A DNA stretch of 64,000 nt from Candidatus Woesebacteria bacterium GW2011_GWA1_44_23 (GTDB taxonomy: Bacteria > Patescibacteriota > Microgenomatia > UBA8517): contig LCIL01000005.1 of the NCBI GenBank assembly GCA_001001045.1, positions 21,409 to 85,408 of the forward strand. Reading direction: 5' to 3'. Below the pieces are notes generated by a model. It did no database searches and was not told the DNA's origin. It saw only the letters and a program-made list of their open reading frames with translations. The position numbers were made by a program, and so were the translations under genes. Every line of letters starts with the position of its first letter. The stretch's first letter is position 1. This document shows, piece by piece, positions 10,535 to 27,417 of the stretch.

Positions 10535-10535
10535 T

Positions 10536-11594
10536 ATGAAAAAAACTGCCCTGATCATTGCTTCTTTCCTGCTCCTCCTGGGAGGAGTTTTTGTAGCCTC
10601 CCGTATTCATGCTCAAGAAAGTCTGCAGGTTTTGCCTCTGACCGTCGTTCCTCCCAAACAGGAGGTTTTGATTAACCCCGGAGAGAAGTTTTCCACCTCC
10701 GTCAAGTTTTTAAATCAGGCCGACTCCCCCGTTACAGGCTCCCTGTATGTTCTTGATTTTGTGGTTGAGGATAATGTAGGCACGCCGATGTTTCTGGATA
10801 ATCCCCAGGTTGTGGGTACGACTCAAATCCCGGCCAAGTATTCCGCTGCCAAATGGATATCGATTCCGGATGACACCGTCACCATAGCTTCAAAGGGAAA
10901 TATTTCAGTCCCGATTACGATTAACGTTCCCAAGACTGCCGTTCCCGGAGGAAGATACGCGGCGGTTCTTTTCCAGCCTGCAACAAACCTGACCATGGAG
11001 GATTCGGAATCTGCACTGGAAACTCCAATTACGGTTCGGCTTGCGTCTCTTATTTATATAAGGGTGGCCGGTCCTATTTCCGAAAGCGCAACCGTTACCA
11101 AGTTTGAGGGTCCCAAATTCCTTGAATACGGGCCCGCATCAATCACCACGCAAATTTTAAACCAGGGTAATTACCATATTTCCCCCCAGGGAGATGTCAC
11201 TTTGAAAGACATATTCGGCCGTGTGGTTGCCAAGAGCAAACTTGATGCCAGAAATATCTTCCCGGGTACTTCTAGGGTCTATACAAACGAACTGGGGCAA
11301 AAGTTGATGATCGGTAAGTTCACCACTACCCTCAATGCCACATACGGAGATACGGGAAAACTTCTCACCGCAAGTTTTGTTATGTGGGTCCTGCCCTGGA
11401 GAATAATGCTGGCGATCCTCCTGGCGCTTATAATAATTGCCCTGACAGGAACCATGTGGTACAAGAGAATCAAAAAGAAGGAAGAAAAATTGGTTGAGGA
11501 ACTTAAAGAAGAAAAGACCGAACTCGAAGAATTAAAAGAAGAGCTTAAAGATAAAGTTGCCGGCGAGCCTACTCCAAAAGAAGAGACTAAATAG
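10536..11594 (+). CDS. cell-surface protein, DUF916-like N-terminal domain with C-terminal TM anchor and Lys/Glu-rich tail
   Basis: Signal peptide; QESLQVLPLTVVPPKQEVLINPGEKFSTSVKFLNQ...; C-terminus WVLPWRIMLAILLALIIIALTGTMWYKRIKKKEEKLVEELKEEK. Confidence 0.45.
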   Translation: MKKTALIIASFLLLLGGVFVASRIHAQESLQVLPLTVVPPKQEVLINPGEKFSTSVKFLNQADSPVTGSLYVLDFVVEDNVGTPMFLDNPQVVGTTQIPAKYSAAKWISIPDDTVTIASKGNISVPITINVPKTAVPGGRYAAVLFQPATNLTMEDSESALETPITVRLASLIYIRVAGPISESATVTKFEGPKFLEYGPASITTQILNQGNYHISPQGDVTLKDIFGRVVAKSKLDARNIFPGTSRVYTNELGQKLMIGKFTTTLNATYGDTGKLLTASFVMWVLPWRIMLAILLALIIIALTGTMWYKRIKKKEEKLVEELKEEKTELEELKEELKDKVAGEPTPKEETK

Positions 11595-11644
11595 TCCAAA
11601 CCTGCTGTGGTTAAAAACCCAAAGGACTAGTAAAATAATTAAAG

Positions 11645-12580
11645 ATGAAACGTCTCGCCGAGATAGCCTTCGTGTACCTCATTTTGGGGTGCCTATTTTT
11701 GTCCGCTGGTGGTTTACCCGCCTCGGCCCAAATACTGCCGAATCTGGGGACCAGGAGGGCCCAAGTGACGATTTCCGCAAGCCTCGGGGAACCGGTTTTG
11801 CGGCTTTGGGGCTACGGCTCTGCAAACTCAAGGGTTGAGTTGAGCGGACGGGGTGTTGCCGATTTTGCATATTCAAGGAGTGACGGCTATTATGAGTTTT
11901 CAAAAGCTTTTCTGCCGGCACCAACGGATTTTCTTTACCCCGAGCTTTGTCTGACCGCAATTGACCAGACCGGCCGGGCTACTCCCCCCACCTGCATCCC
12001 GGCTCTTCCCGCAAATGAATTCAGCTACGATATAGGGCCGATAATTTTACCCCCCACACTAAGTCTGGAGGCAGGAAGTACCACTCCGGACACTCAAGTG
12101 GCGGCAAGCGGCATGACAATTCCTAATTCCGAAGTCAAAATTGTTTTGGCGGAAGGCGGTACCGGCAACGCCATTACTAAACTCAGCATCGTTACCGAAG
12201 TTTCGGCGTATTACATTCCGAATTATACTGTGAAATCCGATTCTCAAGGCTACTTCAACTTCAACATGCCCGCGACAACTTCAGATAAATGGCGTATGTT
12301 TGCAATCACAAACTATTCACAGGTAGCCACATCCCCCAAAAGCAACACCCTCACCTTTGAAGTAATTTCCCCGGCCCTTGCCGCTGCCCAAAAATTTTGG
12401 AAACTGATTCTTTCACTTTTAACGCTACCTGTATTTATATCTTTCGAAATATTAATCATTCTCGTCCTTATCGCTTTATTGCTGGTGAAAAGGGGTAAAA
12501 AGAAAGTATCTCCAACTATTTCAAACAAGATCGATGAATATCAAGCTTACCTGATTTCGAAGCGCTTACCCAAAATCTAA
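11645..12580 (+). CDS. secreted hypothetical protein with C-terminal TM anchor
   Basis: Signal peptide MKRLAEIAFVYLILGCLFLSAGGLPASA. C-terminus ...LILSLLTLPVFISFEILIILVLIALLLVKRGKKK. Confidence 0.5.
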   Translation: MKRLAEIAFVYLILGCLFLSAGGLPASAQILPNLGTRRAQVTISASLGEPVLRLWGYGSANSRVELSGRGVADFAYSRSDGYYEFSKAFLPAPTDFLYPELCLTAIDQTGRATPPTCIPALPANEFSYDIGPIILPPTLSLEAGSTTPDTQVAASGMTIPNSEVKIVLAEGGTGNAITKLSIVTEVSAYYIPNYTVKSDSQGYFNFNMPATTSDKWRMFAITNYSQVATSPKSNTLTFEVISPALAAAQKFWKLILSLLTLPVFISFEILIILVLIALLLVKRGKKKVSPTISNKIDEYQAYLISKRLPKI

Positions 12581-13134
12581 TCAAAAGTGACAGTTGCTTT
12601 TTGGATCAAGGTTGCACCGTCGACTGCAGCCTCTATAATGTAAACCCCGGGGGCACTCTCCGAGGCTATATCAAAAGTCGCCCTTCCCTGATTGTCCGTA
12701 ACCGGCTGGATGGGAGAAACCTGGAGTGGGCCTCCTCCCAATGAAACGGTTTTGCCGGATATCCCAAGCCCCCTGTCGTTAAGAATGTAAACGGTTATTC
12801 TTATCTGTTCCCCTCCCACTTTAGCTCTTAAGGGGGACGCAAAAACGTATGAGTTCTCCAAAGACAAACCCGAGCTGCCCGCCGGCCGCGTTTTTTCGGT
12901 ACTGGTTGTAACGGAAGAATAAGCACCGCTTCGAAAAATAAGGGGGCTACGTATCAGATACAGAAAAAGGATGAGTATAAGAATAAGGATAATAAAAACA
13001 ATAAAAACTAAAATTATGTACCTCGTCCTCCTGGAGTCCCTTTCATTTTTTGTATTTTCGCTCTCTATTTTTTCGTCCTCTATACTTTTATCCTCGATAC
13101 TCCTGCCAACAATACTTTCATTATCCGCATCCAT
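12577..13134 (-). CDS. membrane-anchored protein with extracellular Ig-like (Big-like) domain
   Basis: Acidic N-terminus, TM helix YIILVFIVFIILILILILFLYLI, C-terminal beta-rich domain ...GQIRITVYILNDRGLGISGKTVSL.... Confidence 0.45.
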   Translation of the reverse strand: MDADNESIVGRSIEDKSIEDEKIESENTKNERDSRRTRYIILVFIVFIILILILILFLYLIRSPLIFRSGAYSSVTTSTEKTRPAGSSGLSLENSYVFASPLRAKVGGEQIRITVYILNDRGLGISGKTVSLGGGPLQVSPIQPVTDNQGRATFDIASESAPGVYIIEAAVDGATLIQKATVTFD

Positions 13135-13608
13135 GATATTATAATGAGGTACATCGTAATAAAAATCAAGTTTCTATGTATCTTCACAACTTTTGCGTGA
13201 AAATGTAACTCTCAGCTCACGTAAATTATAATTGCCATAAATTCGGGGTAAAAGTAGGGTAAATATTCCTGGCACTCAAGATATGGGTTTGCCAATTATA
13301 TGCGTAATTTTTCTATATTGAGCATACCAAGCTGCTGACAGTGTTTGATATACATATATACCGACAAATTGGAAAGTTAACCGCAAAATTATAGGACTTC
13401 ATATAATAAACGCATATCTCCGCATAAGAATTTTAGGCACGATATTTGTGTGTAAAACAGCGTTATTTTACAGTTATAGCCCCTGCCTTTTATTAATATA
13501 TAGTATTTTTGATGCGTGAAATTACTGCGGTAAATATACTATATACTGCATGAAATATATTTTACCATTCACCCGTTTTATTGCTAATATATTGCAACAA
13601 TTAGGCTC

Positions 13609-13637
13609 TTGACAGCCTTGGTAAATACTTTAATAAT
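13609..13637 (+). promoter_or_regulatory. candidate sigma70-type promoter (TTGACA, 17 nt spacer, AATAAT) for the 13675 gene
   Basis: TTGACA at 13609-13614, 17-nt spacer, AATAAT at 13632-13637, inside a 540-nt AT-rich intergenic region. Confidence 0.35.
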
Positions 13638-13674
13638 AGTCTAATTAGTATAATTCAGTATAATCTAGCCTTAA

Positions 13675-14193
13675 ATGCCCGATACACAATCCGACTCAGT
13701 CAAAAAAGATTTTATTAAATATCTCGATTCTCTTGGCCTTTCTCCCAGATCTCATAAAAATTATAGGAGCGATTTGGGCTACTTCCTTTCCTGGACAATA
13801 TTAAGAATCAGGTCTTTCGGAGCGTACGTCGAGTCGTTAACTGAAGTTGTCCCCTTTTTGAACAAAGATCTTGGCCGTGAATTTAAGAACTACATGACCG
13901 AGAATTCTGTTCCGTCAAAGACCATAAACCGGAGGCTATCCACTCTCAGGCACCTATCCAAATTTTTGACGCAAAGCCATGTTGTCGACAAGGATTTTGC
14001 CGGAGGAATTGAAAATATCAGTTCAAATTACAACAAGAGGCCCGGTATTAATCCTGTTTTCAATGATTTTAGATCGTTTCTCGAAAGTGAGAAGGTTTCC
14101 CCTAACACTATCAAAAACTATCTTTCTGATATAAGACATTTTCTGGCGTGGCTGGAGAATGACAACAAACAAACAGGTAACTTAACAAATTAA
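13675..14193 (+). CDS. tandem phage-integrase N-terminal SAM-like (core-binding) domain protein; probable frameshifted 5' part of the giant gene that follows
   Basis: DFIKYLDSLGLSPRSHKNYRSDLGYFLSW...INRRLSTLRHLSKFL, then a second FNDFRSFLESEKVSPNTIKNYLSDIRHFLAWL whose second half lies in the next ORF. Confidence 0.55.
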   Translation: MPDTQSDSVKKDFIKYLDSLGLSPRSHKNYRSDLGYFLSWTILRIRSFGAYVESLTEVVPFLNKDLGREFKNYMTENSVPSKTINRRLSTLRHLSKFLTQSHVVDKDFAGGIENISSNYNKRPGINPVFNDFRSFLESEKVSPNTIKNYLSDIRHFLAWLENDNKQTGNLTN

Positions 14194-14201
14194 CTAAATA
14201 T

Positions 14202-17200
14202 ATGTCCAACCTGCCTGATATCACTCCTGATTTAATAAAAAGATACCAAGAAGATTTGGTTGCACGCTTCTCCCCGGCCACGGTTAAGAGAAAGTCGATT
14301 TCGGTCGGTAAGTTTCTTGACTGGGCTCAAAAGGAAGGATTCCTGGATACGAATCCCGGAGGTGTTCTTTCGGCTCAGCGTTCAAAGGAGACACTAATCC
14401 CCGCAAAAGCTGCGGGAAAAACTGGTCTCCGCAAATGGTACCATAGGTATCAAAGTATTCCGGGAGCTTCGTATCTCGGGGTTGCGGTTGCCTTAATCCT
14501 TGCTTCAACTATTGGTCTTGGAGTATATAATCAATTCTTTAAAAATGCGCAAAACCCCCTGGCCTACCCCACTTCTCTAACGCCTCCAAGCCGTTATTTA
14601 TCCTTCCAGGGCAGACTCACAAATCAATTCGGTAACCCGATAACAGCCGTAACCAGTGTTACTTTTAAGCTTTATGACGATCCTAGTGCGGGTACAACTC
14701 TTTGGACGGGTACATGTAATGTTTCACCGGATACTGACGGGGTTTTTTCTTCTCTCCTCGGAAGCGATTGCGGAACACAGCTAACAAGCAACGTTTTCTC
14801 CGAAAATGCCGCGGTCTGGCTGGGAGTAAAGGTTGAGTCCGATCTTGAAGCCACACCCAGGGTGCAAATCGCAACCGTCGCCTATGCTACGAATTCGGAG
14901 ACCTTGCAAGGATTCCCTGCCTCCGCATCGGCAACGATCAACACGGTTCCCGTAATAGACAACTCGGGGCAATTGGTCATCGCAGCCTCCTCCCCCAAAA
15001 TTCAATCCACTTCAGGCACATTTGCGATTGAGGGACAGGCTTTGACAATAAGCACACCAACTGCATCAAACGGTGATGTTACTATAGCACCAGATGGCAC
15101 GGGTCAGCTCAATTTAACTTTTTCCGGAGCATCCCCGGGATCCGGAACCGGGATGGTGAATGCTACCGATGCCAATTTAACCTCAGGGTCTCTCTACTAT
15201 GGTGAGGTTGCCAATGACGCCACGGGATACAATCTGCTTGAGCTTGCAAGCGGTGCCACACCGAGAACCAAATTTGCGGTTGATTCGGCAGGTAATGCAA
15301 CGCTTTCGGGAACGATCAACGGCCTTGCCATTTCCGGAGGAACGATAACCTCAGGAACTTGGAATGGAACCGTAATTTCCACTACATACGGGGGTACCGG
15401 ACAGGACTGGGATTCCATCGCCCAAGGTTCACTTCCCTATTTCTCGGGAACCGGGACTATGAGTACGCTGGCTCCGGGGACTTCGGGATATGTTCTAATG
15501 ACTCAAGGGGCTTCAGCCAATCCGATTTGGACTCCTTCCTCAGGGGTAGGAACCAACTACTGGCAACTAACTTCAAATGCCCTCTCCCCCGTTAACTCAA
15601 CTTACGCACTAAACATAGGTAACACCGCAAGTACTTCCGCCTACTTCCATGTACCGGGAACCAATAATCAAAACGCATGGTTCAACTTGGGAACCGGGTA
15701 TTTAGGTGTTGGAACAACATCACCAACGGCTATATTGGATATTTCTGGAAATACAACAACATCGCTGGTTAAAATAACCCAAAATCACAGCTGGTCCGGT
15801 ACAGAATATGCGCTTACCGTTTCGGGATATTCAAATTTGGGAGGTTTTCGTATTAATGCTGCAGATGGTGCCAATGCAATATATAACACTCTTAATGGAA
15901 CGCTGGGTTTTACGAACAACCAAGGATATCCAATAACCTTCTCTAGTTGGAGCGGATCAACGGGTACTGAACGTATGAGGATAGACACCACTTCTGGTAA
16001 CGTCGGTATAGGTACCACTTCACCATCCCAAAAGCTTGATGTTGCCGGCAATGTCAATATCTCAGGCTATGCCACAGCTTCAGCATCTCTTAATGTCGGT
16101 AGCGGAAATGCATTGGCTGGGATAGGAAATATTTCGTATTCCAATGCACTCCTTCCTGGTGGAGTTGCAGGAACTTCAGGATATGTACTCACTTCCTCAG
16201 GGGGTGGAGTAAACACTTGGACAAACCCTGCAACTGTAGGAACTAACTACTGGCAGTTGAACGGATTGGTTCTCTCCCCTGCCAATGCAGTAGCATATGA
16301 TCTCACTATTGGAGGGACGGCAACAGGTTCTGCCTTCCAGGTATTTGCTGCAACAGGGAATATTACAACCTCGGGAGATTTAGCTCTCAATGGTGGGGAT
16401 ATCACATCGACCGGAGATCTGACTATTGATCCTGCGGGTGGAGACGTCTTCCTAAACTCAGACAATCTTAACCTTACGGCCTCCACCAACCTTATCTTTG
16501 GATCAACATCACTTGGAGAATACACATCAAACACAGATTCTGGAGCATATGTTGTTGGCGTATATGATGAGTTTACATATTCTACTGCAACCAATGTCCA
16601 GGGAGTACTAAAGAGCTTTGATACAGCTATCGCAGGAGCCTCCCTTTGGCAAAGAACAGCAGGCTCTCTTGCTCCTGCCAATATTACAGACTCACTTAAT
16701 CTCGGCAATACAGCAACAGCCTCAGCTCTAGTCCACTTGGCAGGAACAACCGGAGAAAACTCATGGATCAACACAGGGAGTGTGGGAATCGGAACAACAA
16801 ATCCGACTTTCAAACTTCATGTTATTGGTACAGCTGGCTTTTCAAATACGGTTACACTTACTACCAACAATGGCTTTTTCTTCGGAACTAAAACTGATGG
16901 TTCTACTACACACCGACTGATTGGACTTAATAATTCAAATCAGCTTCAAATTGGAGAAAATGCTAACGGTGTTCCTCTTATTTTTAAATCTGGAAGCAGC
17001 GGCCAAATGCTGTTTGACACATCAGGAAATCTAGGCATTGGCCTCACTAACCCTTCCTACAAACTGGATGTTACCGGCGATATTAACCTCACTGGAGCTC
17101 TGAGAGATAACGGTTCGGCAGGAACTTCCGGTCAGGTTCTTTCAACTACAGGAACAGGGGTGCAGTGGATAGATGCGGCAGGAGTAGGAACAAACTACTG

Positions 17201-18890
17201 GTCGGTGCTGAGTAACAACACAATATACCCCACAAACACCCTTCAGGATCTGCTTTTGGGTTCGTCTGCCACCGCATCAGCCAAATTTGCATTCAAAGGG
17301 GTTGGATCAGGAGTCCCTACAGCTTCCATCTCAGGAACAACTGCCAATGTAGCTACATTCATTGATGGTAACGGTAATATTTCCACAACAAACCGTAATA
17401 ATCTGATACTTGGAAATTCCTCCACATACAATTCAACCGGGAATATTCTTCTTAACCCCAATGGGACTGGAAATGTGGGGATTGGGACAACTGCCCCAAG
17501 TGGAAAGACCCATATTTTAGGATCTACAAACTCTGGGAACCAGCTTCTTGTCCTACAGAGTTCTGATGATTCCATAAATGACAACGCCCTTGAGATTCAG
17601 ACAAGCTCAGGAACTGTAGTAAGCCGATTTCGCGGTGATGGACGACTCTTTGTTTCAAATCAAATCGGAGTAACCAATGGAGCCTACTCCGGCAACTGGT
17701 ATGGACATCAACTGGATTTGACTGGAAGTGGTACCGTTTCTATTACTGCCGCAGGTAATTCTTATTTTAATTCTGGCAATGTTGGTCTCGGTACTGTTTC
17801 CCCGACAGCCAAACTTGACGTAGCAGGTGACGCTTCCACCTCTGCCTCGCTTGTATTTAGAGGTGCCACCCCAACCATTGATATTCTTAACGGTTCAACT
17901 CTCACATTCCAATCCTCCCCCGGTGGGGATGCCGGTCTAACAAGCATTGCTACCCTTGCACCTGCCGGCAACTTTACCGTTAACGGAACATTAAATGGAT
18001 TAACGGTATCGGGAGGAACAATAACGGGAGGGACCTGGAATGGAAGTTTAATTGGTACTCAATGGGGTGGAACGGGGGCCAATAACTCCACCGCAGCCCA
18101 ATATTCAGTTCCTTACTACTCTGCAACGGGAGTATTGGGAGGAGTTCTAGCTCCGGGAACCTCAGGATATGTATTGACCACAAACAGTACCAGTGGAGCT
18201 CCTACCTGGACCAATGCAGGAAGTGTTGGAACCAACTACTGGCAACTAAATAGCCTTGTTCTCTCCCCTGCCAATGCCTCTGCGTATGACCTTGCTATAG
18301 GAGGGACAGCAACAGGTTCTGCCTTCCAGGTATTTGCTGCAACCGGAGATATTACAACCTCGGGAGATTTGGCTCTCAATGGTGGGGATCTTACAACCAC
18401 AGGTGATTTGACCATTAATCCTGCGGGTGGGGATGTCTACTTGAACTCAGACAATCTTAACCTTACGGCCTCCACCAACCTTATCTTTGGATCAACATCA
18501 CTTGGAGAATATACATCAAACACGGATTCGGGAGCATATGTTGTTGGTGTATATGATGAATTCACATACTCTACTGCTACCAATATACAGGGAGTGCTAA
18601 AAAGTTTTGATACGGCCATTGCAGGAGCTTCTCTTTGGCAAAGAACAACAGGTTCACTCGCTCCTGCAAACATTACAGACTCACTTAACCTTGGCGCTAC
18701 CGCCACAGCAAGTGCCCTCGTGCACCTTGCCGGTACTTCGGGAGAAAACTCATTCATTAATACGGGTAATGTGGGGATAGGAACAAGTGCTCCTTCCACA
18801 TATAAGCTCCAGGTAGTAGGAACGGGAGGATTTAGTACAGACAGGCTGCTGCCGTTACTTTCGGAAACGCTTCATACCAGACGAATATAA
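14202..18890 (+). CDS. giant surface protein, part 1 (1562 aa): SAM-like half-domain, TM helix, tail-fibre-like repeats (GxVGIGTTxPxxKLDV)
   Basis: TM helix GASYLGVAVALILASTIGLGVY. More than 15 copies of the motif N(V/L)GIGTT(S/N)P.(A/Y)KL(D/H)V. Internal 200-aa near-identical duplication. Confidence 0.7.
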   Translation: MSNLPDITPDLIKRYQEDLVARFSPATVKRKSISVGKFLDWAQKEGFLDTNPGGVLSAQRSKETLIPAKAAGKTGLRKWYHRYQSIPGASYLGVAVALILASTIGLGVYNQFFKNAQNPLAYPTSLTPPSRYLSFQGRLTNQFGNPITAVTSVTFKLYDDPSAGTTLWTGTCNVSPDTDGVFSSLLGSDCGTQLTSNVFSENAAVWLGVKVESDLEATPRVQIATVAYATNSETLQGFPASASATINTVPVIDNSGQLVIAASSPKIQSTSGTFAIEGQALTISTPTASNGDVTIAPDGTGQLNLTFSGASPGSGTGMVNATDANLTSGSLYYGEVANDATGYNLLELASGATPRTKFAVDSAGNATLSGTINGLAISGGTITSGTWNGTVISTTYGGTGQDWDSIAQGSLPYFSGTGTMSTLAPGTSGYVLMTQGASANPIWTPSSGVGTNYWQLTSNALSPVNSTYALNIGNTASTSAYFHVPGTNNQNAWFNLGTGYLGVGTTSPTAILDISGNTTTSLVKITQNHSWSGTEYALTVSGYSNLGGFRINAADGANAIYNTLNGTLGFTNNQGYPITFSSWSGSTGTERMRIDTTSGNVGIGTTSPSQKLDVAGNVNISGYATASASLNVGSGNALAGIGNISYSNALLPGGVAGTSGYVLTSSGGGVNTWTNPATVGTNYWQLNGLVLSPANAVAYDLTIGGTATGSAFQVFAATGNITTSGDLALNGGDITSTGDLTIDPAGGDVFLNSDNLNLTASTNLIFGSTSLGEYTSNTDSGAYVVGVYDEFTYSTATNVQGVLKSFDTAIAGASLWQRTAGSLAPANITDSLNLGNTATASALVHLAGTTGENSWINTGSVGIGTTNPTFKLHVIGTAGFSNTVTLTTNNGFFFGTKTDGSTTHRLIGLNNSNQLQIGENANGVPLIFKSGSSGQMLFDTSGNLGIGLTNPSYKLDVTGDINLTGALRDNGSAGTSGQVLSTTGTGVQWIDAAGVGTNYWSVLSNNTIYPTNTLQDLLLGSSATASAKFAFKGVGSGVPTASISGTTANVATFIDGNGNISTTNRNNLILGNSSTYNSTGNILLNPNGTGNVGIGTTAPSGKTHILGSTNSGNQLLVLQSSDDSINDNALEIQTSSGTVVSRFRGDGRLFVSNQIGVTNGAYSGNWYGHQLDLTGSGTVSITAAGNSYFNSGNVGLGTVSPTAKLDVAGDASTSASLVFRGATPTIDILNGSTLTFQSSPGGDAGLTSIATLAPAGNFTVNGTLNGLTVSGGTITGGTWNGSLIGTQWGGTGANNSTAAQYSVPYYSATGVLGGVLAPGTSGYVLTTNSTSGAPTWTNAGSVGTNYWQLNSLVLSPANASAYDLAIGGTATGSAFQVFAATGDITTSGDLALNGGDLTTTGDLTINPAGGDVYLNSDNLNLTASTNLIFGSTSLGEYTSNTDSGAYVVGVYDEFTYSTATNIQGVLKSFDTAIAGASLWQRTTGSLAPANITDSLNLGATATASALVHLAGTSGENSFINTGNVGIGTSAPSTYKLQVVGTGGFSTDRLLPLLSETLHTRRI
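16236..16840 (+). repeat. about 600-bp internal near-identical duplication, copy 1 (copy 2 at about 18227..18835)
   Basis: The encoded 200-aa segments GTNYWQLN.LVLSPANA...GVIGTTNP are over 90% identical. The antisense ORFs 16247..16813 and 18437..18799 share identical peptides. Confidence 0.7.
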
Positions 18891-18925
18891 GCGGATCTTC
18901 GGTTGTTGTTAACTCCCTAACCGGA

Positions 18926-21900
18926 ATGATCAAAGGAACAAGCGGAACACTTAGTGCAATTACGGGGACAGCCGGATATGTAACTTACTGGAGTGATGCC
19001 AATACCATCGCAGCGGAACAATTTGTGACCACAGCCCAAGGAGGCTTGGGAGCAAATGTAACGGCAGGAGGTATAGGAGAAATCCTTTACTCAACAGGAA
19101 CAACCACGTATGACTCCTTAACTGCGGGGACTAGCGGATACATCCTTAAAGCAGCAGGAGCGGCTGCTCCTGCCTGGACGGCGCCTGCTGCTTTGACCAA
19201 GACGGATGACACCAATGTTACCGCCACTCTCGGGGGAAGCGCTTCCACCGCTTTGGTCAATGCTGCCTCCATTACCCTGGGCTGGACGGGACAGCTTTCC
19301 TTGGCCAGGGGCGGAACAAATAAAGCAATGACAGCATCAGCCGGAAGTGTTGCCTACTCCGATGCCGATTCACTGGAACTAGGGGTGGGAACTTCCGGAT
19401 ACGTACTTACCTCAGCAGGAACGGGAACTCCTACTTGGACCAATCCTGCAACACTCGGAACCAATCACTGGCAGCTTGCAAATAACATCCTGGCACCTAT
19501 TAATGTAACCAATGATCTTGCTATTGGGGGAAACTCTACAGCTTCTGCAAAATTCCAGGTGATGGGAACAACAGGCAATATCTCAACAGCCAACAATACC
19601 GTTGACTGGACACTAAACTCTGCAGTTGATGCACTAAATATTGATACCAATACACTTTCAGTAGATGCATTAAATAACAGAGTAGGGATTGGGACAACCA
19701 ATCCTTCTTCAAAAGTGGAGATCTCCGATGGAACAGACTCATTACAAATAGCCGCAAATGGCGATCTTACCTTTGTTGATGCTGACAGCTTTGCGCAAAT
19801 CATAGGACCTAACGGGGGCGGTCTCTATATCAGCTCAGGGACAAGTCAGGATATAGACCTTAATGCCGGCTCAAACAGAATCTATGTTAACGAGGGTCAA
19901 TTAGAATTTAATGCTTCAAGCAGCGATGCTATTTTAGATATTAATAAAAATGGAACAAGTCTACTAAGAATTGAGAATGAATGGGGTGGACAGGTTGCCA
20001 ATATGTATGTGGAGGGCCGCGTCGGTATTGGCACGACTGCTCCTACCGCAGAACTTGATGTTGCCGGTACCGCTTCTGTCTCTGCACTAACCATACGCGG
20101 CGCGTCTCCCGGCTATATAAACCAAGTCAACGGAAACAGCCTAATATTCCGCACGTCTCCCGGAGGAGATACGGGACTTACCGAAAAAATGACTCTCACC
20201 AACGCAGGCTACCTTGGAATCGGAACAACGTCTCCAAATACTAGTCTTCAGGTTGGATCGGGAACGAGCAATCACTCGCTAAGTGCTAATGACACCCTTC
20301 TAACCGCCGATCTTGAACTGGATGGAACAATGTATCTTGATGGCGGACAGATAGCCAATTCGGCCGGAACGGTGTCATTTAGCCTTTCCGCCACACCTGC
20401 AACTTCTTACAACTATCTTTCGTCCAGCAGTTGGCTTATTGATAATCCTGTCAATGTAGGCCAGGCTGCCCTGATGGTAAATCAAGGGAAAGGAGGAGAC
20501 ATTTTTACAGCCTCCGCTTCGGGATCTACTAAGTTTGTCATCAAGAACGATGGCAAAGTCGGGATTGGGACAACAGATCCTCAGGCAATTACACATATAA
20601 AAAACATGAATAACACGCAAGAGATGACAATTCTCCAAATCGATCCTGGTACTTTCACTACGGCAGGCACCTTCTCTGGCATAGTGGCAGATTTCAGTAG
20701 TATTACCCGAAGCGATAGCGACGCCATTGTTTATGGTATCTTTTTAAACAGTCCAACGGCAGGAGGCACCCCGCTCGATACGGTATACGGATTGTACATT
20801 GCAGGGACCAACTGGAATTACGGGATCGTGTCCGAAGACGATGTCTGGTTTCTATCCAACACAACTATCGGGGACGCCAGCGGTGATGCGGTTACGGTAA
20901 ATAGCGCCGGTTGGACTTTCAGCAATGATACCAACTTTTCTCTTTCCGGTGGGGTCAACGGACTGTCTTTCGATACAAGTACTCTGTCAATTGATGCAAC
21001 TAATGATCGAGTCGGCATTGGAACAACCAGCCCCAATGCCAAATTGGAAGTAACCGGAGATGTTTACCTGAGTAACGGTGCAACCCGGAATATAAAAATC
21101 CCAGCGAATATTGATGCTAACGGCAACGATCTTTATATCATGGCCGGAAGCGGAACCTCGACCGGGCCTGGCAATTATAACGGAGGGGATCTCTATCTTG
21201 ATGCCGGCAGTGGTATCAATGCCGGAGTCCCGGGGGATATTCTGCTTCAAACCACGAGCGGTAATGTCGGTATCGGTTTGACAAACCCCAGCCAGGCTCT
21301 TCAGGTTACAGGTAGTATTAATACCAGCGTCCAGTTCCTGGGTCAATCGGCAGATACCGTCTCTGCTCCGGCTTTCTCATGGACCGGTAATACGACTACC
21401 GGAATATATCGTCCTGCCGCCAGCCAAATTGCTCTTACCCTTGGAGGAACCCAAAGAGCTCTTTTCACCGCCACAGCCGTTACCCTTACCGGCCAGACAA
21501 CCCTTACCGCCTCATCACTGTCTACTCTCACCACATCCGCCACACTTAGTTTGGGTGGTGCCACAACTTTGACCTTTACTTCAGACAATGCCACCATCAA
21601 TGGTTCTGATGTTGCAGACGGCGATCTGACTCTTCAAGGAACATCCAACGCGACAAGGACAACAAGTTACGTTCTGCTTCAACCCACAGCCGGATACGTC
21701 GGCATTGGCACGACAGCACCTGTAACCCTGCTACATATACCCAGCACAGCCGATGGAGGTTTGAGCACTCATGGCTCTGAGGTATTAGGCCCGGTATCTG
21801 GAATAAATATGATGATGGATTCTAACGAAATCATGGTAAGAAACAATGGTGTCGCTTCAGCGCTGTATTTAAATCATGAGGGTGGGACTGTCAATATAAG

Positions 21901-23980
21901 CCAGTCAACTGCAGGTATCTTTTCAGTTAACACTAATGGACTTTATGTTAATGCAAGCAATAGTGTCGGCATTGGAACAACGGCACCCGGGGAGGAGCTT
22001 GATATAGCAGGACAAATCCAATTTAACTTGGATGGCGCCGCGGGAGATAATACGATTGGTGTTTGTAAAAGCGTGGCTGACAGCACGGGGGTAGAAGCCG
22101 ACGTTGAATTCCGAGACTGCAGCGGTACTCCGGGTGATATTGCGGAATATTATGCGGCGGAGGCCGACTTACATCCCGGAGACATTGTATCTATTACATA
22201 CATTGACAACAAACCCACGTTGATCAAAACAAACACTTCCTATGACAAGAATGTATTTGGAGTTGTATCTACCTATCCTGTCGGACAACACGGAAAACCG
22301 TTAAGTTCCGGTCTCTATTCTGCAGATGAATATCCAACAGCCATAGGTCTTGCAGGAAAAGTGCCGGTTAAAATCAGCGCAGAAAACGGACCTGTGGCAC
22401 CGGGTGATCCACTCGTATCGTCCTCCATTCCCGGCGTTGCCATGAAAGCTGGAAAAGCAGGCAAGATCATCGGTTATGCAATTGAACCGTATGACGGATC
22501 AACAACGGTCAGTAACGAGGTCAGGGTGCAGGAGTCTATGCGTAGCGGCGCAACCATGAAGTTCAATCTTGACCCACAAGACCCGACAGAGCCCGGAGTC
22601 GGCAAAATTCTGATGGCAGTCAACAATTCCACATATGATCCGGATATTTACCTTACCGATTCCGGCAATCTGAACGTTACCGTTGATCAAAACGGAAACT
22701 ACGAACTTACCGATACCACGACAGGAAACATAATCGACAGGGTTGGTGCATTTGCCGAAACGGTAGCCGCAACGGTGAGGGCAGGAGCAATTGTAACTTC
22801 CGATTTTGTTACCGAAAACCTGACCGCAGAAGTTGCCAACATAGCAAGTGTTGTTGCCCAAAACATTCAGGCAGGTGTGGTTGTAACTCAAGACCTGGCT
22901 ACAACTTCATTTACGGCTTTCCAGGGGACGGTTGACAATATGCTGATAAGTACGGGTTTGGTAGCCCAAAATGTACAAACGGATCTTATCTCTCCCCTTG
23001 CCGATTCTACTGACGTAAAAGTACAAGTGGGATCAAGCGCAACACCCTCCGGAAAGTTCATTGTCCAAGATACCGAAGGAAGTGCTGTGGCTTCAATCGA
23101 CAACGAAGGGAACGCCACATTCTCCGGAACTCTATATGCGGGAGCGATTGAGTCTCAGAGCCTGGATGACATTAAAGCCCTTTTGACCAGTGTCCAGACG
23201 GATCAGAATCTTTTGAAGGATGCTGCAAACTGGAATACTTTAACTGCAACAAACTCTGCAAGTCTTGATCAAATAGCGGTTGCCGATCTTTATGTAACCA
23301 ATCAAGCGGCCATTAATTCTCTCTCCGTAACCAATAGTGTAACAATAGGTTCCGATATGGTATTTAGTTCAACGCTCAACGACCAGTCATTGGCCGTCAA
23401 CAGCATCGATACGCTTTCCGCCCCCCTTAAGATTCAGGCTCTTGCCATGGCTCCTGTAGAAATCATGGCGGGCTTAGTCACAATTGATACTCACGGAAAT
23501 GTAAATATCAGCGGGAATCTTTATGTTGCCGGCCGGGTTAAGGCTTCCGGATTGACTTTGTCGGAAACCGATGTCCCGGAGAATGCTACAGCTTCAGCTC
23601 TTCTTACTCTTCAAAACCTGGCCGGGAGCGAGGTTGCCTCGGTTAATGCATCCGGCTCGGCCCAATTCGGATCAATCTCCACTCCCCAACTTGTTATTGC
23701 GGGGGCTGATGCAACGCAATCGGGTACTATTATAAACGGGGTTATTTCTACAAACTCAACCGTCGGGCAGGCGGTTATCCCGGCGGGAACCAGTGAAATT
23801 ACGATTAAAAATCCTAAAGTTACGGACTACACTTTGGTCTACGTAACTCCAACCTCTTCGACGGAAAACAACGTACTATATGTAAAGAGTAAACAGGGAG
23901 GTCAGTTTGTTGTTGGGTTTGCAAACCCAATAAATGTTGACGTCAGCTTTAACTGGTGGATAGTTCAAGTGAGCCAATGA
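18926..23980 (+). CDS. giant surface protein, part 2 (1684 aa; frame open from 18836): tail-fibre-like repeats and a distinct C-terminal region
   Basis: Same GIGTT repeat family. The frame continues upstream to 18836, which points to a single frameshift relative to part 1. C-terminal region GDIAEYYAAEADLHPGDIVSI...VFGVVSTYPVG. Confidence 0.7.
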   Translation: MIKGTSGTLSAITGTAGYVTYWSDANTIAAEQFVTTAQGGLGANVTAGGIGEILYSTGTTTYDSLTAGTSGYILKAAGAAAPAWTAPAALTKTDDTNVTATLGGSASTALVNAASITLGWTGQLSLARGGTNKAMTASAGSVAYSDADSLELGVGTSGYVLTSAGTGTPTWTNPATLGTNHWQLANNILAPINVTNDLAIGGNSTASAKFQVMGTTGNISTANNTVDWTLNSAVDALNIDTNTLSVDALNNRVGIGTTNPSSKVEISDGTDSLQIAANGDLTFVDADSFAQIIGPNGGGLYISSGTSQDIDLNAGSNRIYVNEGQLEFNASSSDAILDINKNGTSLLRIENEWGGQVANMYVEGRVGIGTTAPTAELDVAGTASVSALTIRGASPGYINQVNGNSLIFRTSPGGDTGLTEKMTLTNAGYLGIGTTSPNTSLQVGSGTSNHSLSANDTLLTADLELDGTMYLDGGQIANSAGTVSFSLSATPATSYNYLSSSSWLIDNPVNVGQAALMVNQGKGGDIFTASASGSTKFVIKNDGKVGIGTTDPQAITHIKNMNNTQEMTILQIDPGTFTTAGTFSGIVADFSSITRSDSDAIVYGIFLNSPTAGGTPLDTVYGLYIAGTNWNYGIVSEDDVWFLSNTTIGDASGDAVTVNSAGWTFSNDTNFSLSGGVNGLSFDTSTLSIDATNDRVGIGTTSPNAKLEVTGDVYLSNGATRNIKIPANIDANGNDLYIMAGSGTSTGPGNYNGGDLYLDAGSGINAGVPGDILLQTTSGNVGIGLTNPSQALQVTGSINTSVQFLGQSADTVSAPAFSWTGNTTTGIYRPAASQIALTLGGTQRALFTATAVTLTGQTTLTASSLSTLTTSATLSLGGATTLTFTSDNATINGSDVADGDLTLQGTSNATRTTSYVLLQPTAGYVGIGTTAPVTLLHIPSTADGGLSTHGSEVLGPVSGINMMMDSNEIMVRNNGVASALYLNHEGGTVNISQSTAGIFSVNTNGLYVNASNSVGIGTTAPGEELDIAGQIQFNLDGAAGDNTIGVCKSVADSTGVEADVEFRDCSGTPGDIAEYYAAEADLHPGDIVSITYIDNKPTLIKTNTSYDKNVFGVVSTYPVGQHGKPLSSGLYSADEYPTAIGLAGKVPVKISAENGPVAPGDPLVSSSIPGVAMKAGKAGKIIGYAIEPYDGSTTVSNEVRVQESMRSGATMKFNLDPQDPTEPGVGKILMAVNNSTYDPDIYLTDSGNLNVTVDQNGNYELTDTTTGNIIDRVGAFAETVAATVRAGAIVTSDFVTENLTAEVANIASVVAQNIQAGVVVTQDLATTSFTAFQGTVDNMLISTGLVAQNVQTDLISPLADSTDVKVQVGSSATPSGKFIVQDTEGSAVASIDNEGNATFSGTLYAGAIESQSLDDIKALLTSVQTDQNLLKDAANWNTLTATNSASLDQIAVADLYVTNQAAINSLSVTNSVTIGSDMVFSSTLNDQSLAVNSIDTLSAPLKIQALAMAPVEIMAGLVTIDTHGNVNISGNLYVAGRVKASGLTLSETDVPENATASALLTLQNLAGSEVASVNASGSAQFGSISTPQLVIAGADATQSGTIINGVISTNSTVGQAVIPAGTSEITIKNPKVTDYTLVYVTPTSSTENNVLYVKSKQGGQFVVGFANPINVDVSFNWWIVQVSQ

Positions 23981-24220: not shown

Positions 24221-26149
24221 ATGGAAATAACCAAGCTCATCCGAAATATCGAAAAATACATCTTGGTAGCACTGGCGGGTTTATTTGCTTTATTTGTTTT
24301 TCCGAAATTTGCCTCCCCCTTCGTTGTCCCTAAGGAAATTTTTGGGGCCGTTGCCGTATCGACAGTGTTGGTTCTTTGGTCGGTGAGATCGATTATTAAA
24401 AGAGAGTCGACTTTTTCTGTCGGAAAGTTTGATCTTGGAGTACTTTTGATAGCACTTGCCTATGTTGTTGCGGCGGTAGTTAAAACTCCGAACAAAATGG
24501 AGGCATTTTTCTTCCCCGGTACCGTAACTTTTGTCATTATTTCTGCTATATTCTATTTTCTGGTCAACCAGTTCGGCAGAAGGACAAAGAACCTGATTTT
24601 AATTGCGCTTTTCGGCTCGGGAATCCTTCTTACGATCTCAATTCTTTTTACGCAGCTTGGGCTTTTTGCCAAAATTCCCCAGCTTCCGGATTTTATGAAA
24701 AACTCTTCTTTCAATCCCGTAGGCGGAGCGCTGCCTTCGGCTCTTTACCTGGTAACCTTACTTCCCGTTGGTATTGCCCTGGTTATTAAGGAGAAGGACT
24801 TGGCCAAAAGGTTATTTTACGGGGTTGCGTCTGTTGTTATCTTTTTTGGAGCAGCTCTTCTTACCATTAACCTTCTTCCCGGAAAGCCCCAAGCCTTGAT
24901 TTTTCCCAGCCTGCTGACCACCTGGGCGATAGTTATTGAGACCTTGAAGACAAGCCCAGTCTGGGGAATGGGCCCTGATAACTATGTTACCGCTTTTAAC
25001 TTGTTTAGGCCCATTTCCTACAATCAAACTGCTCTTTGGGCCGCCAGATATGCCACCGCGAATAACTACTATTTTACTTTGATTACCGAGGTTGGTTTTG
25101 CCGGACTTGCAGCCATCTCGGTACTTCTTATCGGTATTTATAGGGCGGTAGTGGCGGGCTTTAAACAGAAAAACTGGGAGATTGCTTCTTTGGCTCTGCT
25201 GGTTGTGCTTTTTGCGATATTTCCATCCGCTCCGGTTCTCTTTTTCCTTTTGATGGCTCTTCTGGCGGTTTTCTCGAAATCGGAGGAGAAATCCGTAAGT
25301 TTGGCTACCAATAGGGTCCCGACTGCCATTGTTGCAGCTCCGATACTTATTGGGGTTGTTGCTTTGGCAATTTTTGGTACAAGGGCCGTGATGGCGGAAG
25401 TAACTTACAAGAAGTCTTTGGATGCATTGGGCAGCAACAACGCCAAGGATACCTATACGCTAATGGCTCAGGCGATAACCCAGAGCCCATATGTGGATCG
25501 GTACCACGCTTCCCTGGCGCAGGTAGAGATGGCCATTGCTTCGTCAATCGCCAACAACAAGGATTTGACGGAAGAAGACCGTCAAACTATAACACAACTG
25601 ATCAGTCAGGCTATAAATGAGGGCAAGGCGACCGTGACCCTTAATCAGGGAAGGTCGGCCAATTGGGAGCTTCTTGCCCAGATCTATCAGAACATTATGT
25701 CCTTTGCCGAAGGGGCCGATCAGTTCGCCATTGATACATACACGCAGGCGGTTGCGCTTGATCCGATAAACCCCAACCTGAGAATCGGACTCGGTGGAGT
25801 GTATTACGCACTCGGCAGATACGATGACGCGATTGATATCTTTAAGCTTGCAGCTTTGGCAAAGCCCGATTTGGCCAACTCCCATTATAATCTGGCCATA
25901 GCCTATGGAGAGAAGAAAAACTATGACAGTGCAATTGCCGAGATGAACACGGTCTTGACCCTTGTGGCCAAAGATTCACCCGACTACACCTTGGCCAAAA
26001 ATACTCTGGATGCCTTGGAGAAAGCCAGACCCGCAACGCCCGCCGCAGCCGGATCTGAAAATCTGACCCCTCCCCAAAAGCAGGAAACAGTCATAGAGCC
26101 TCCCATAGAACTTCCGGAAGAGGCTACTCCCCCCGCAGCCACACCGTAA
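24221..26149 (+). CDS. O-antigen ligase (Wzy_C)-domain polytopic membrane protein with C-terminal TPR repeats; candidate protein O-oligosaccharyltransferase
   Basis: Ten or more TM helices. WGMGPDNYVTAFNLF...ANNYYFTLITEVGFAGL resembles the Wzy_C/WaaL/PglL motif. C-terminal TPR repeats ...LGRYDDAIDIFKLAALAKPDLANSHYNLAIAYGEKKNYDSAI. Confidence 0.65.
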   Translation: MEITKLIRNIEKYILVALAGLFALFVFPKFASPFVVPKEIFGAVAVSTVLVLWSVRSIIKRESTFSVGKFDLGVLLIALAYVVAAVVKTPNKMEAFFFPGTVTFVIISAIFYFLVNQFGRRTKNLILIALFGSGILLTISILFTQLGLFAKIPQLPDFMKNSSFNPVGGALPSALYLVTLLPVGIALVIKEKDLAKRLFYGVASVVIFFGAALLTINLLPGKPQALIFPSLLTTWAIVIETLKTSPVWGMGPDNYVTAFNLFRPISYNQTALWAARYATANNYYFTLITEVGFAGLAAISVLLIGIYRAVVAGFKQKNWEIASLALLVVLFAIFPSAPVLFFLLMALLAVFSKSEEKSVSLATNRVPTAIVAAPILIGVVALAIFGTRAVMAEVTYKKSLDALGSNNAKDTYTLMAQAITQSPYVDRYHASLAQVEMAIASSIANNKDLTEEDRQTITQLISQAINEGKATVTLNQGRSANWELLAQIYQNIMSFAEGADQFAIDTYTQAVALDPINPNLRIGLGGVYYALGRYDDAIDIFKLAALAKPDLANSHYNLAIAYGEKKNYDSAIAEMNTVLTLVAKDSPDYTLAKNTLDALEKARPATPAAAGSENLTPPQKQETVIEPPIELPEEATPPAATP

Positions 26150-26256: not shown

Positions 26257-27417
26257 ATGCCTGCCAAACTGCTTAGAAGGGTGGCTGAAGAAGGTACGTT
26301 CAGTCATATATATAATAACGGGGTTGAAAATATAGCCATCTTCAAGGACCGGCAAGACTTTGAAGTCTTTCTGGGTTTTTTGAAAGATTACCTATCTCCG
26401 GTCAGTTCCGAAGTTCCCAAAAAAGAATTCACTATTGAAGGCCGCTCTTTCCGGGGCACTCCCCGCCAACCTAAAAATTACCTGGGCAGAGTCGAGCTTA
26501 TCGCCTACCGGCTCACCCCTACCCATTTCCACCTCATCCTGCATCAGAATACCCCGGACTCGCTTGGGAATTTCATCAGGTCCCTCTGCACCAGATACTC
26601 GATATATTTTAATAAAAAATATTCCCATTCCGGAGCTTTATTCAACGGCCCCTACAAATCAGTTTATATCAAGGGTATATCCCAGCTTTTGCACTTCACC
26701 CGGTATCTCCACCGCAGTCCAGATAATGGTGAAGACCCTGTCAAAATATATACATCATACCCAGAGTATATCGGTCAAAGACAATCTTCATGGGTAAAGA
26801 CGAACGCGGTGCTTTCGGTCAAAGGAGTAGACGAGTACAAGGATTTTGTAGAAAAATATCAGCTTAACCAAGAAGAAAGAGATATTCTCGAAGGTGTTCC
26901 TTTTGATGTCAAAGCCCCGCACAAGGAAGAAGTCCTTTATGCACCCGACACCGTTTCCGCTTCTTCCCATGGGACACCTGAACTTTCCCACAAGGCACCG
27001 CCTACTGATTTAAAACCCCGGCCCCGTATTTTCGAGTACGGACTGGCAATGGGGGTTTTTATTGTACTTCTGAGCTTTGGGTTAAATAATGTCCGTGTTT
27101 CTCAGGCAAGATATTCAACAAACTCTCCGGTTCTTTCCGAATCAACAAGCATTATGCCCTCCCCGACCGCTGCCTTACCACCCACCGGTTCTCCCGAACC
27201 AAAAATAATGGTAACAGTTAAAACTGCTGATGCCTCGGTAAGTGCCAATATCCGCAAGGAGCCGAGTTTTCAGGCGGAAATAATCGGTATGGCCAAAAAC
27301 GGTGAAGTTTTTGAATCCGTGTCGATAGGCCCGGAGTGGAATGAGATCAAACTAAATGACGGTTCAATAGGATTTATATTATCAAAACTGGTACTAATAG
27401 ATCAAACTAATATCTAA
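26257..27417 (+). CDS. IS200-like Y1 (HUH) transposase domain fused to TM helix and C-terminal SH3b domain (copy 1, HuH intact)
   Basis: NIAIFKDRQDFEVFLGFL...VELIAYRLTPTHFHLILHQ...RYSIYFNKKYSHSGALFNGPYKS...RYLHRSP...YTSYPEY; TM helix GLAMGVFIVLLSFGL; SH3b ANIRKEPSFQAEIIGMAKNGEVFESVSIGPEWNEIKLNDGSIGFI. Confidence 0.7.
   Translation: MPAKLLRRVAEEGTFSHIYNNGVENIAIFKDRQDFEVFLGFLKDYLSPVSSEVPKKEFTIEGRSFRGTPRQPKNYLGRVELIAYRLTPTHFHLILHQNTPDSLGNFIRSLCTRYSIYFNKKYSHSGALFNGPYKSVYIKGISQLLHFTRYLHRSPDNGEDPVKIYTSYPEYIGQRQSSWVKTNAVLSVKGVDEYKDFVEKYQLNQEERDILEGVPFDVKAPHKEEVLYAPDTVSASSHGTPELSHKAPPTDLKPRPRIFEYGLAMGVFIVLLSFGLNNVRVSQARYSTNSPVLSESTSIMPSPTAALPPTGSPEPKIMVTVKTADASVSANIRKEPSFQAEIIGMAKNGEVFESVSIGPEWNEIKLNDGSIGFILSKLVLIDQTNI

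Follow-up and report, generated by a model that had tools for sequence, protein, structure and literature searches.

A recombinase-type core-binding domain divided between a small gene and a giant fibre-like gene in a Woesebacteria bacterium

In tyrosine recombinases the core-binding (CB) fold binds DNA, and bitopic regulators of the ToxR/CadC/TcpP type join an N-terminal cytoplasmic domain of nucleic-acid-binding type, through a single transmembrane (TM) segment, to an extracytoplasmic part that can sense the outside. Bacteria belonging to the candidate phyla radiation (CPR), or Patescibacteria, are believed to rely on attaching to host cells, and to our knowledge very little has been learned about the molecules involved. 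Giant surface or adhesin proteins include the FhaB-domain proteins of Patescibacterium danicum (PMC11809585) and Giant1-5 of Apilactobacillus (PMC12863079), and for giant Patescibacteria proteins an attachment role has been proposed (PMC11809585). The locus considered here lies in a 64,000-nt stretch (the window) of contig LCIL01000005.1 from Candidatus Woesebacteria bacterium GW2011_GWA1_44_23, and consists of two co-oriented genes behind one promoter-like site, one encoding a small CB protein and the other a giant fibre, with a single CB domain divided between them.

A preliminary description had recognized three open reading frames (ORFs) at this locus, which are present, each in a different reading frame (that of ORF2 is -1 with respect to ORF1), and whose products match KKT54492.1, KKT54493.1 and KKT54494.1 (contig UW47_C0005) exactly. 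It took all three for one gene. That holds for ORF2 and ORF3, which are separated by a 25-bp lesion, but not for ORF1 and ORF2, whose boundary is conserved: this is a long-lived, genuine gene boundary that bisects a domain, and the two genes form a Rosetta-stone fusion/fission pair. The description was right that the ORFs derive from what is a single coding unit in many relatives, as fused CB-CB-TM-fibre proteins exist (P0001, P0003, P0006, P0017 and others; P denotes homologous proteins and L loci throughout). The features of the two genes, all on the + strand, are:

13675..14193, +, ORF1, 172 aa; first CB domain (CB1) and hairpin A of the second (CB2)
13696-13974, +, CB1 of ORF1 (residues 8-100), a complete core-binding (SAM-like) domain
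14053-14175, +, CB2 hairpin A of ORF1 (residues 127-167), the first helical hairpin alone
14194..14201, +, spacer of 8 nt from the ORF1 TAA to the fibre ATG, identical in sequence in L002-L007
14202..18890, +, ORF2 as called, 1562 aa
18926..23980, +, ORF3 as called, 1684 aa
14202..18839, +, first part of the fibre gene: hairpin B, linker, TM helix, base and fibre-like repeats
14223-14336, +, CB2 hairpin B of the fibre (residues 8-45), followed by a cytoplasmic linker
14457-14537, +, fibre TM helix (residues 86-112), a hydrophobic segment
14598-14921, +, beta-sandwich base domain of the fibre (residues 133-240), followed by tail-fibre-like repeats
16232..16797, +, internal repeat copy 1, 566 bp, blastn self-match
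18221..18786, +, internal repeat copy 2, 566 bp, blastn self-match
18839..18840, +, site of the 25-bp deletion, TCCGTCAACTCTCCCATATTCCAGG missing by alignment with L002-L007
18840..23980, +, second part of the fibre gene, in the frame open from 18836: more fibre-like repeats and the C-terminal module
21950..23977, +, C-terminal module, 676 aa

Residues 12-100 of the ORF1 product match Pfam Phage_int_SAM_1 (PF02899; E 9e-15), with a half-copy at residues 129-165, and ORF2 by itself gives a weak match to positions 39-83 of the same profile (E 0.14). When ORF1 and ORF2 are conceptually joined, profile positions 2-83 of 83 align over residues 130-222, across the junction (E 4.7e-18), which bears out end to end the earlier observation that the second SAM-like copy is split by the first ORF boundary; the earlier count of 2.5 such domains becomes 2.0 CB domains. 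NCBIfam XerC/XerD models match through their first ∼100 positions only, far below cut-off. An AlphaFold2 (AF2) model of the conceptual ORF1-ORF2 fusion, run with 39 aligned homologues, consists of two four-helix units with predicted local distance difference test (pLDDT) values >90, a TM helix and a beta-sandwich, and places a low-confidence loop (residues 168-184 of the fusion) exactly at the gene boundary. Foldseek searches with the CB model return Brujita Int, XerD and lambda Int (probability 1.0, root-mean-square deviation 2.6-3.3 Å, ∼105 columns). Pfam, NCBIfam, AF2 and Foldseek agree on the SAM-like fold expected for the N-terminal segments, and by sequence and by fold these are PF02899-type CB domains, the N-terminal domain of tyrosine recombinases. 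No Pfam match to the Phage_integrase catalytic domain (PF00589) was obtained with ORF1, ORF2, ORF3 or the fused homologue P0001, and no second CB or fibre-base locus was found elsewhere within the window. Relatives are labelled in the databases as 'site-specific integrase, partial', 'Core-binding (CB) domain-containing protein' or 'hypothetical'. The first of these names is misleading because there is no catalytic domain and the CB domains are in tandem, attached to a TM-fibre protein, or split. The ORF1 product is soluble and basic (isoelectric point 9.4) and the cytoplasmic tail of the fibre has an isoelectric point of 10; the former ends in the peptide ...QTGNLTN and the latter begins with MSNLPDITPDLIK.

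An exact look-up of ORF1 located the same locus in six other independent assemblies (L002-L007; NCBI, JGI and ENA), 99.4-100% identical to the window. Across positions 13500-14500 all seven assemblies are base-identical, the ORF1/ORF2 junction included. Upstream of the junction the ORF2 frame is shut by a TAA at 14178-14180, so that both frames are open over 14181-14190 only, and this overlap (CTTAACAAAT) contains neither an X XXY YYZ slippery heptamer nor a homopolymer at least 4 long. Outside this overlap lies the A-rich tract at ∼14166, which had been proposed as the place of an indel or shift; it cannot be a shift site because of the TAA that closes the ORF2 frame downstream of it.

The boundary recurs widely. 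The conserved TM segment and base domain were aligned and used to scan GTDB species representatives, which gave 345 loci; the best 80 were fetched, almost all from Woese-, Roizman-, Gottesman-, Shapiro- or Pacebacteria or generic Microgenomates, and the counts given here rest on 75 of them, classed with a purpose-built CB-domain hidden Markov model. The split form, with the membrane-proximal CB domain always cut between its hairpins A and B, was found in ∼36 of the 75, the remainder encoding fused proteins with one or two CB domains. In split loci the upstream ORF encodes a full CB domain plus hairpin A and ends 0-15 residues past that hairpin, and the main ORF always begins with a methionine, encoded by a conserved ATG, followed by hairpin B; homologues that start with a methionine a few residues ahead of the 'ITPDLIKRY...' helix include P0002, P0004, P0007, P0011, P0012, P0016 and others. 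Relative frames of 0, +1 and -1 all occur and spacers range from -56 to 902 nt (3, 6, 10, 15, 113 and 517 nt among the relatives). L008, L009, L010 and L011 each have an ORF1-like gene directly upstream, with spacers of 517, 10, 6 and 113 nt and frame relations of +1, +1, 0 (a plain in-frame TAA) and -1, respectively. The frame relation changes even inside the clade of the window, where spacers are very short (3-15 nt). At five loci a whole gene has been inserted in the spacer, encoding 23S_rRNA_IVP (L008, L036, L048) or NYN (L029, L089) proteins. On a crude neighbour-joining tree split forms lie scattered among fused ones, again including the clade of the window. The inserted genes lie at 3489-3989 in L008, ∼2600-3245 in L036, ∼2395-3115 in L048, ∼2045-2880 in L029 and ∼2610-3175 in L089; 23S_rRNA_IVP proteins are four-helix bundles, and more IVP genes are located near the locus in L001 and L008.

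Both pieces of the divided domain appear to be maintained. ORF1 orthologues keep a length of 150-190 aa with dN/dS of 0.08-0.38 (0.09-0.38 for unsaturated pairs), substitution ratios that place the small CB gene under purifying selection. Mean pairwise identities of the orphan hairpins A and B are 0.51 and 0.44, compared with 0.46 and 0.48 for the hairpins of the intact CB1, and the tail after hairpin A is unconserved (0.03). When 1.84 billion cluster representatives were searched exhaustively with a profile, 489 were obtained at E<=1e-30; the best 150 of these range from 256 to 6,346 aa and have the module close to the N-terminus, and 75 of the 135 new ones reach at least 2,000 aa. The 124 classifiable metagenome-wide representatives include 32 of the split type, 48 with one full CB domain and 34 with two or more. 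The family, as defined here, comprises CB hairpin(s) or domain(s), a TM helix, an 'LSFQGRLTD...QIATVAYALNSETLQG' beta-sandwich base and a giant repetitive region, and the locus of the window fits this definition.

The ORF2/ORF3 junction is of a different kind. After window position 18839 all six of L002-L007 carry 25 bp, TCCGTCAACTCTCCCATATTCCAGG, that the window is without. Apart from this indel, the window departs from L003 over 11.2 kb only in a single substitution and an in-frame indel of 3 bp; the 25-bp indel is the sole frame-breaking difference, and putting it back restores an uninterrupted ORF of 3,268 aa, the length of OGM87731.1 (L003). ORF2 and ORF3 are therefore one gene, since the 25 bp are present in six assemblies and the restored ORF is uninterrupted; the break between them is an assembly error or a rare variant, and the ATG at 18926 is an ORF-calling artefact. 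The truncated 1,562-aa ORF2 protein is on record from one contig only, and ORF1 from 31; the exact ORF1 protein occurs on at least 23 contigs of independent assemblies. As had been reported, the ORF3 frame is open from 18836, being preceded by a TAG at 18833-18835. The break had also been placed inside a duplicated segment; its actual site is 53 nt past the end of the 566-bp internal direct repeat, the two copies of which (16232-16797 and 18221-18786) are 84% identical. Separate ORFs with apparent starts of their own, which the preliminary description saw as speaking against a single gene, are thus found at the first junction and not at the second.

Further irregularities were seen in this part of the gene. 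L005 has a different private deletion, of 58 bp (window 18683-18740), ∼100 nt upstream and inside repeat copy 2, so that two GW2011 assemblies have different private deletions in or just after that copy. In L002 (15,801-15,826, compared with window 18636-19447) there is an extra internal repeat unit and a fibre of at least 3,556 aa, and because of this unit the number of fibre repeats can be said to vary between populations. L001 (ENA contig_28718, 10001-19850), a 58%-identical relative, has a syntenic gene with a fused CB-CB N-terminus that is broken downstream at two other places, one clearly inside the conserved 'NFWQLNS...LSPANTTYDLAIGG' motif; these breaks are probably assembly errors of that contig. 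Apparent frameshifts in such giant genes call for read-level checks: of the two at this locus, one is private and the other genuine biology.

The restored fibre is predicted from its sequence to be a single-pass, N-in membrane protein of 3,268 aa with an 85-aa cytoplasmic tail. Its only hydrophobic segment, at ORF2 residues ∼86-112, agrees with the single TM helix described previously and comes directly after RKWYHRYQ, as would suit an N-in orientation. The base domain that follows is the most conserved part of the family and is succeeded by ∼2,500 aa of repeats resembling those of phage tail fibres and, at the C-terminus, a tailspike-like head. Thr, Gly, Ser, Ala and Asn abound in the fibre body, which contains 14-15 VGIGTTxPxxKLxV motifs and matches PHROG tail-fibre families weakly (E 9e-9 and 2e-7), in keeping with the tail-fibre-like repeats reported before; it matches no family in Pfam or NCBIfam, and a PDB sequence search gave the marginal 8oml only. 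The overall architecture first proposed, with cytoplasmic CB domains, one TM helix, a tail-fibre-like region of ∼3,000 aa and a distinct C-terminal module, is correct.

The C-terminal module, noticed early as distinctive, has 676 aa and was modelled by AF2 with a mean pLDDT of 68 and two confident beta domains, one encoded by 22130-22639 ('DIAEYY...GDIV...') and the other a terminal beta-sandwich (23717-23977), joined by low-confidence helical or extended stretches. Foldseek searches with this model returned pre-mature phi29 gp12 (3suc), the base of the phi29 gp8.5 head fibre, several tailspike C-terminal domains and the R2 pyocin fibre, all at E ∼1e-3 to 1e-2. Homologues of the module occur throughout Patescibacteria, some with matches to Peptidase_S74, Peptidase_G2 or Intein_splicing (PF13884, PF11962, PF14890), and a piece of ∼120 aa is common to collagen-like proteins. 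The fibre protein of the window itself has no Pfam match to Peptidase_S74 or Peptidase_G2. The modelled folds support a phage-fibre-like head, possibly with an auto-chaperone, without placing the protein in those families.

Two further features adjoin the locus upstream:

12577..13134, -, small Big_1 gene, 185 aa; N-terminal TM helix and Big_1 Ig-like domain (Pfam Big_1, E 4e-8)
13135..13674, no strand, divergent intergenic region, 540 nt, AT-rich

In 62 of the 75 loci a homologue of the Big_1 gene lies upstream of the CB gene and on the opposite strand. Ahead of ORF1 lies a TTGACA-17-AATAAT promoter-like site (13609-13637; 11 of 12 matches), which together with a ∼40-nt leader makes up a stretch of ∼70 nt (13606-13674) containing a block, AGGCTCTTGACAGCCT...TTTAATAATAGTCTAATTAGTATAATnnnGTATAATCTAGCC, that is nearly invariant even in relatives whose proteins are just ∼60-65% identical. 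A '(c)ctcTTGACA' element precedes the first CB gene in most loci of the family. Compared in L001, L008, L009, L012, L013, L015, L016, L021 and L022, the conserved block (AGGCTCTTGACAGCCT...TTTAATAATAGTCTAATTAGTATAAT-N3/4-GTATAATCTAGCC) holds a small palindrome that surrounds the -35 hexamer, together with tandem GTATAAT boxes (GTATAAT-N3/4-GTATAAT), and could act as an operator in addition to being a promoter. The promoter-like site has upstream of it a 21-nt tandem direct repeat (13523-13564; TACTGCGGTAAATATACTATA / TACTGCATGAAATATATTTTA) and a 14-nt inverted repeat (13497-13545), parts of these repeats (TGCGGTAAT.ATACTAT, GTGAAA) being conserved in relatives. The 540-nt region also contains several AT-rich inverted repeats that could be due to chance. 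The sequence CTCTTGACA is unique in the window and statistically not unusual.

The neighbours are cellular genes, for a leucyl-tRNA synthetase (LeuRS), a family 2 glycosyltransferase, RmlD and tetratricopeptide repeat (TPR) proteins, and the synteny with LeuRS and the Big_1 gene is kept across species. No phage structural, replication or lysis genes were found near the locus. Downstream are genes for a TPR protein (24221-26149), an SH3_3 protein (26257-27417) and a dCache_1 sensor-domain protein (27994-29007). The window also has glycosyltransferases, LeuRS, RmlD, 5S rRNA and tRNA genes, as in a cellular CPR/Microgenomates genome, and Rfam at gathering thresholds detects only the 5S rRNA and a tRNA-Ala, elsewhere in the window. 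On the + strand, two paralogous giant Ser/Pro-repeat proteins of the (SPSxSPSV)n type (∼35-42% Ser, 15-20% Pro; 37649-42538 and 45051-49365) have similar C-terminal ends ('...SWN.AGRPKN...LPMK') and explain strong troughs in GC and AT skew at 40-42 kb and at 46-48 kb; the second is called as three overlapping ORFs within the repeat, probably through a repeat-associated assembly problem.

On these solid and widespread genomic facts, which comprise the gene structure, the domain identities, the topology signals, the conserved split and the neighbourhood, a function can be proposed only inferentially. The giant protein would be an extended cell-surface fibre used for attachment by a presumably episymbiotic CPR bacterium, in line with the role put forward for other giant Patescibacteria proteins (PMC11809585). 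On its cytoplasmic face the orphan hairpin of the small protein would pack on the orphan hairpin of the fibre tail, the two reassembling non-covalently in trans into a four-helix CB domain, so that each fibre would bear the tandem CB-CB module that fused relatives carry covalently. This module, which is without a recombinase catalytic domain, would most plausibly bind DNA or act as an assembly or oligomerization platform at the base of the fibre. Taken together, a fibre module with a small CB partner that docks in trans, and a role in surface attachment, seem to us a reasonably probable account of the locus.

Several points weigh against it. No Shine-Dalgarno-like motif precedes the fibre-gene ATG, and because of this we infer the translation start of the second gene only from the conserved methionine and the variable frames, which suggest initiation at its own ATG; a search for such motifs in relatives is uninformative, since just 8 of 35 loci have so much as a weak purine motif ahead of the second gene. 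The AF2 model of CB2 is that of an artificial ORF1-ORF2 fusion, so pairing of the hairpins in trans is not directly supported by it. The surface or adhesion role suggested for the fibre rests on analogy, and DNA binding by the CB module is putative, an assembly platform being the other plausible use. Finally, the 25-bp deletion could be a genuine rare variant and not an assembly error.

One alternative is a single gene of ∼3,400 aa that two indels, of sequencing or assembly, broke up into three ORFs. It is favoured by the fused homologues that span junction 1, by the indel at junction 2, which is truly private, and by the repeat-rich gene at 45051-49365 on the same contig, which is likewise fragmented. 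Junction 1, however, is base-identical in seven independent assemblies, and the boundary recurs in ∼36 diverged loci, in every frame relation, with spacers of up to 902 nt and with inserted genes; a systematic error common to different sequencing projects and to different sequences is implausible, and two indels are an exceedingly improbable explanation. Programmed recoding that joins ORF1 to the fibre, by -1 frameshifting here or stop read-through in relatives, could draw on the 3-15-nt spacers of the window's clade, the position of the stop right at a domain-internal loop and the missing Shine-Dalgarno motif of ORF2, but the 14181-14190 overlap offers no slippery heptamer or homopolymer of at least 4, many loci have spacers of 100-900 nt that hold stops in all frames or whole genes, and a conserved ATG opens every downstream ORF. 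No single recoding mechanism can have been conserved, because close relatives would need shifts of 0, +1 or -1, and we regard recoding as very unlikely; a programmed -1 frameshift or read-through was rejected as a candidate on its variable frames and spacers and the lack of a slippery site. A decaying pseudogene, with ORF1 as the dead remnant of an N-terminus and a fibre that has ceased to be properly made, would agree with the two interruptions in the window and the further ones in L001 and L005. Against this stand the retention of 150-190 aa and dN/dS of 0.08-0.38 in ORF1 orthologues, orphan hairpins conserved like those of intact domains, a fibre ORF intact over at least 3,268 aa in sister assemblies and a strongly conserved promoter region, and there is very little to recommend decay.

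Origin from a prophage or tailocin, the giant gene being a phage tail fibre, is suggested by the PHROG tail-fibre matches, the resemblance of the C-terminal fold to phi29 gp12, tailspikes and pyocin fibres, and homologues with Peptidase_S74/G2 matches. It is nevertheless hardly credible given a neighbourhood without phage structural, replication or lysis genes, an N-terminal TM anchor with cytoplasmic domains, the synteny with LeuRS and the Big_1 gene across species, and the 489 representatives at E<=1e-30, in which the module is, among the matches listed, always N-terminal in proteins of 1,000-6,346 aa. More serious is the proposal that ORF1 is an independent small DNA-binding regulator, for instance of the divergent Big_1 and fibre promoters, that makes no contact with the fibre tail, the two orphan hairpins each functioning alone or pairing within homo-oligomers. 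ORF1 is basic and contains a full CB domain, the adjoining intergenic region is long, conserved and endowed with repeats, and gene order is conserved; but fused relatives reveal that both hairpins belong to one domain, a fission always placed within a domain, with both halves kept adjacent in ∼36 lineages, is a classical sign of partners that still assemble, and a lone two-helix hairpin is unlikely to be stable. An independent regulator is accordingly considered unlikely, and docking of the small CB protein on the fibre tail is preferred. A more elaborate form of docking, in which the split CB domain is a reversible device that keeps the soluble CB protein at the membrane by completing the half-domain of the fibre tail, and engagement of the fibre, or tension on it, at the host alters the association and so frees or activates the DNA-binding CB module, which would then regulate genes (perhaps via the conserved divergent promoter region) or handle incoming DNA, is a speculation that we think quite unlikely; if true, it would represent a new type of contact-sensing, membrane-tethered signalling system in CPR bacteria.

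The family is large and syntenic: species representatives contain 345 loci, the clusters at 50% identity number in the hundreds and the proteins reach ∼6,300 aa. The division of one CB domain between two genes in about a third to half of cases provides a natural, testable instance of split-domain assembly. It links a phage-fibre-like surface structure to recombinase-type CB domains on the cytoplasmic side, and offers a concrete candidate for how an ultra-small episymbiont could connect the apparatus on its surface with the interior of the cell. In CPR genomes, genes like ORF1 ought not to be tallied as integrases or taken as markers of mobile elements. No description of the CB-TM-fibre architecture or of the CB split was found in the searchable full-text literature.

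Among described systems, phage tail fibres and tailspikes (phi29 gp12, endosialidase-type Peptidase_S74 proteins, R-type pyocin fibres) are likened to the fibre by its Gly/Thr/Ser/Asn-rich repeats with VGIGTTxPxxKLxV, by the weak PHROG matches and by the gp12-, tailspike- and pyocin fibre-like folds modelled for its C-terminal domains; they differ in that here the gene is chromosomal and syntenic across species, and a membrane anchor takes the place of the N-terminal virion-attachment domain. The giant proteins of P. danicum and Apilactobacillus (PMC11809585; PMC12863079) are likewise very large, repeat-rich, rapidly varying and extracellular products of small-genome, host-associated bacteria for which attachment is inferred, and here too repeat copy number differs between strains (L002 and L003); the repeat chemistry and the N-terminal signal-anchor helix of the present fibre are different, and a cytoplasmic CB module with a split partner gene is not mentioned in the passages of those accounts that were consulted. 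ToxR/CadC/TcpP-type regulators have in common with the fibre the N-terminal cytoplasmic domain of nucleic-acid-binding type, the single TM segment and the extracytoplasmic part, an analogy of function and not of membership: their DNA-binding domain is an OmpR-type winged helix instead of a CB domain (no Trans_reg_C-type match was obtained), and their periplasmic domains are small sensors as against a 3,000-aa fibre. Tyrosine recombinases (XerC/XerD, lambda Int, Cre, Brujita Int) have the same four-helix fold of the Phage_int_SAM_1/4/5 family, with the family-typical conserved positions S..T.KNY.SD...F and T.NRRLS.LR kept at this locus. Unlike in those enzymes, the CB domains here stand in tandem, free of a catalytic domain and joined to a TM helix and a giant, presumably extracellular fibre, and one of them is encoded across two genes.

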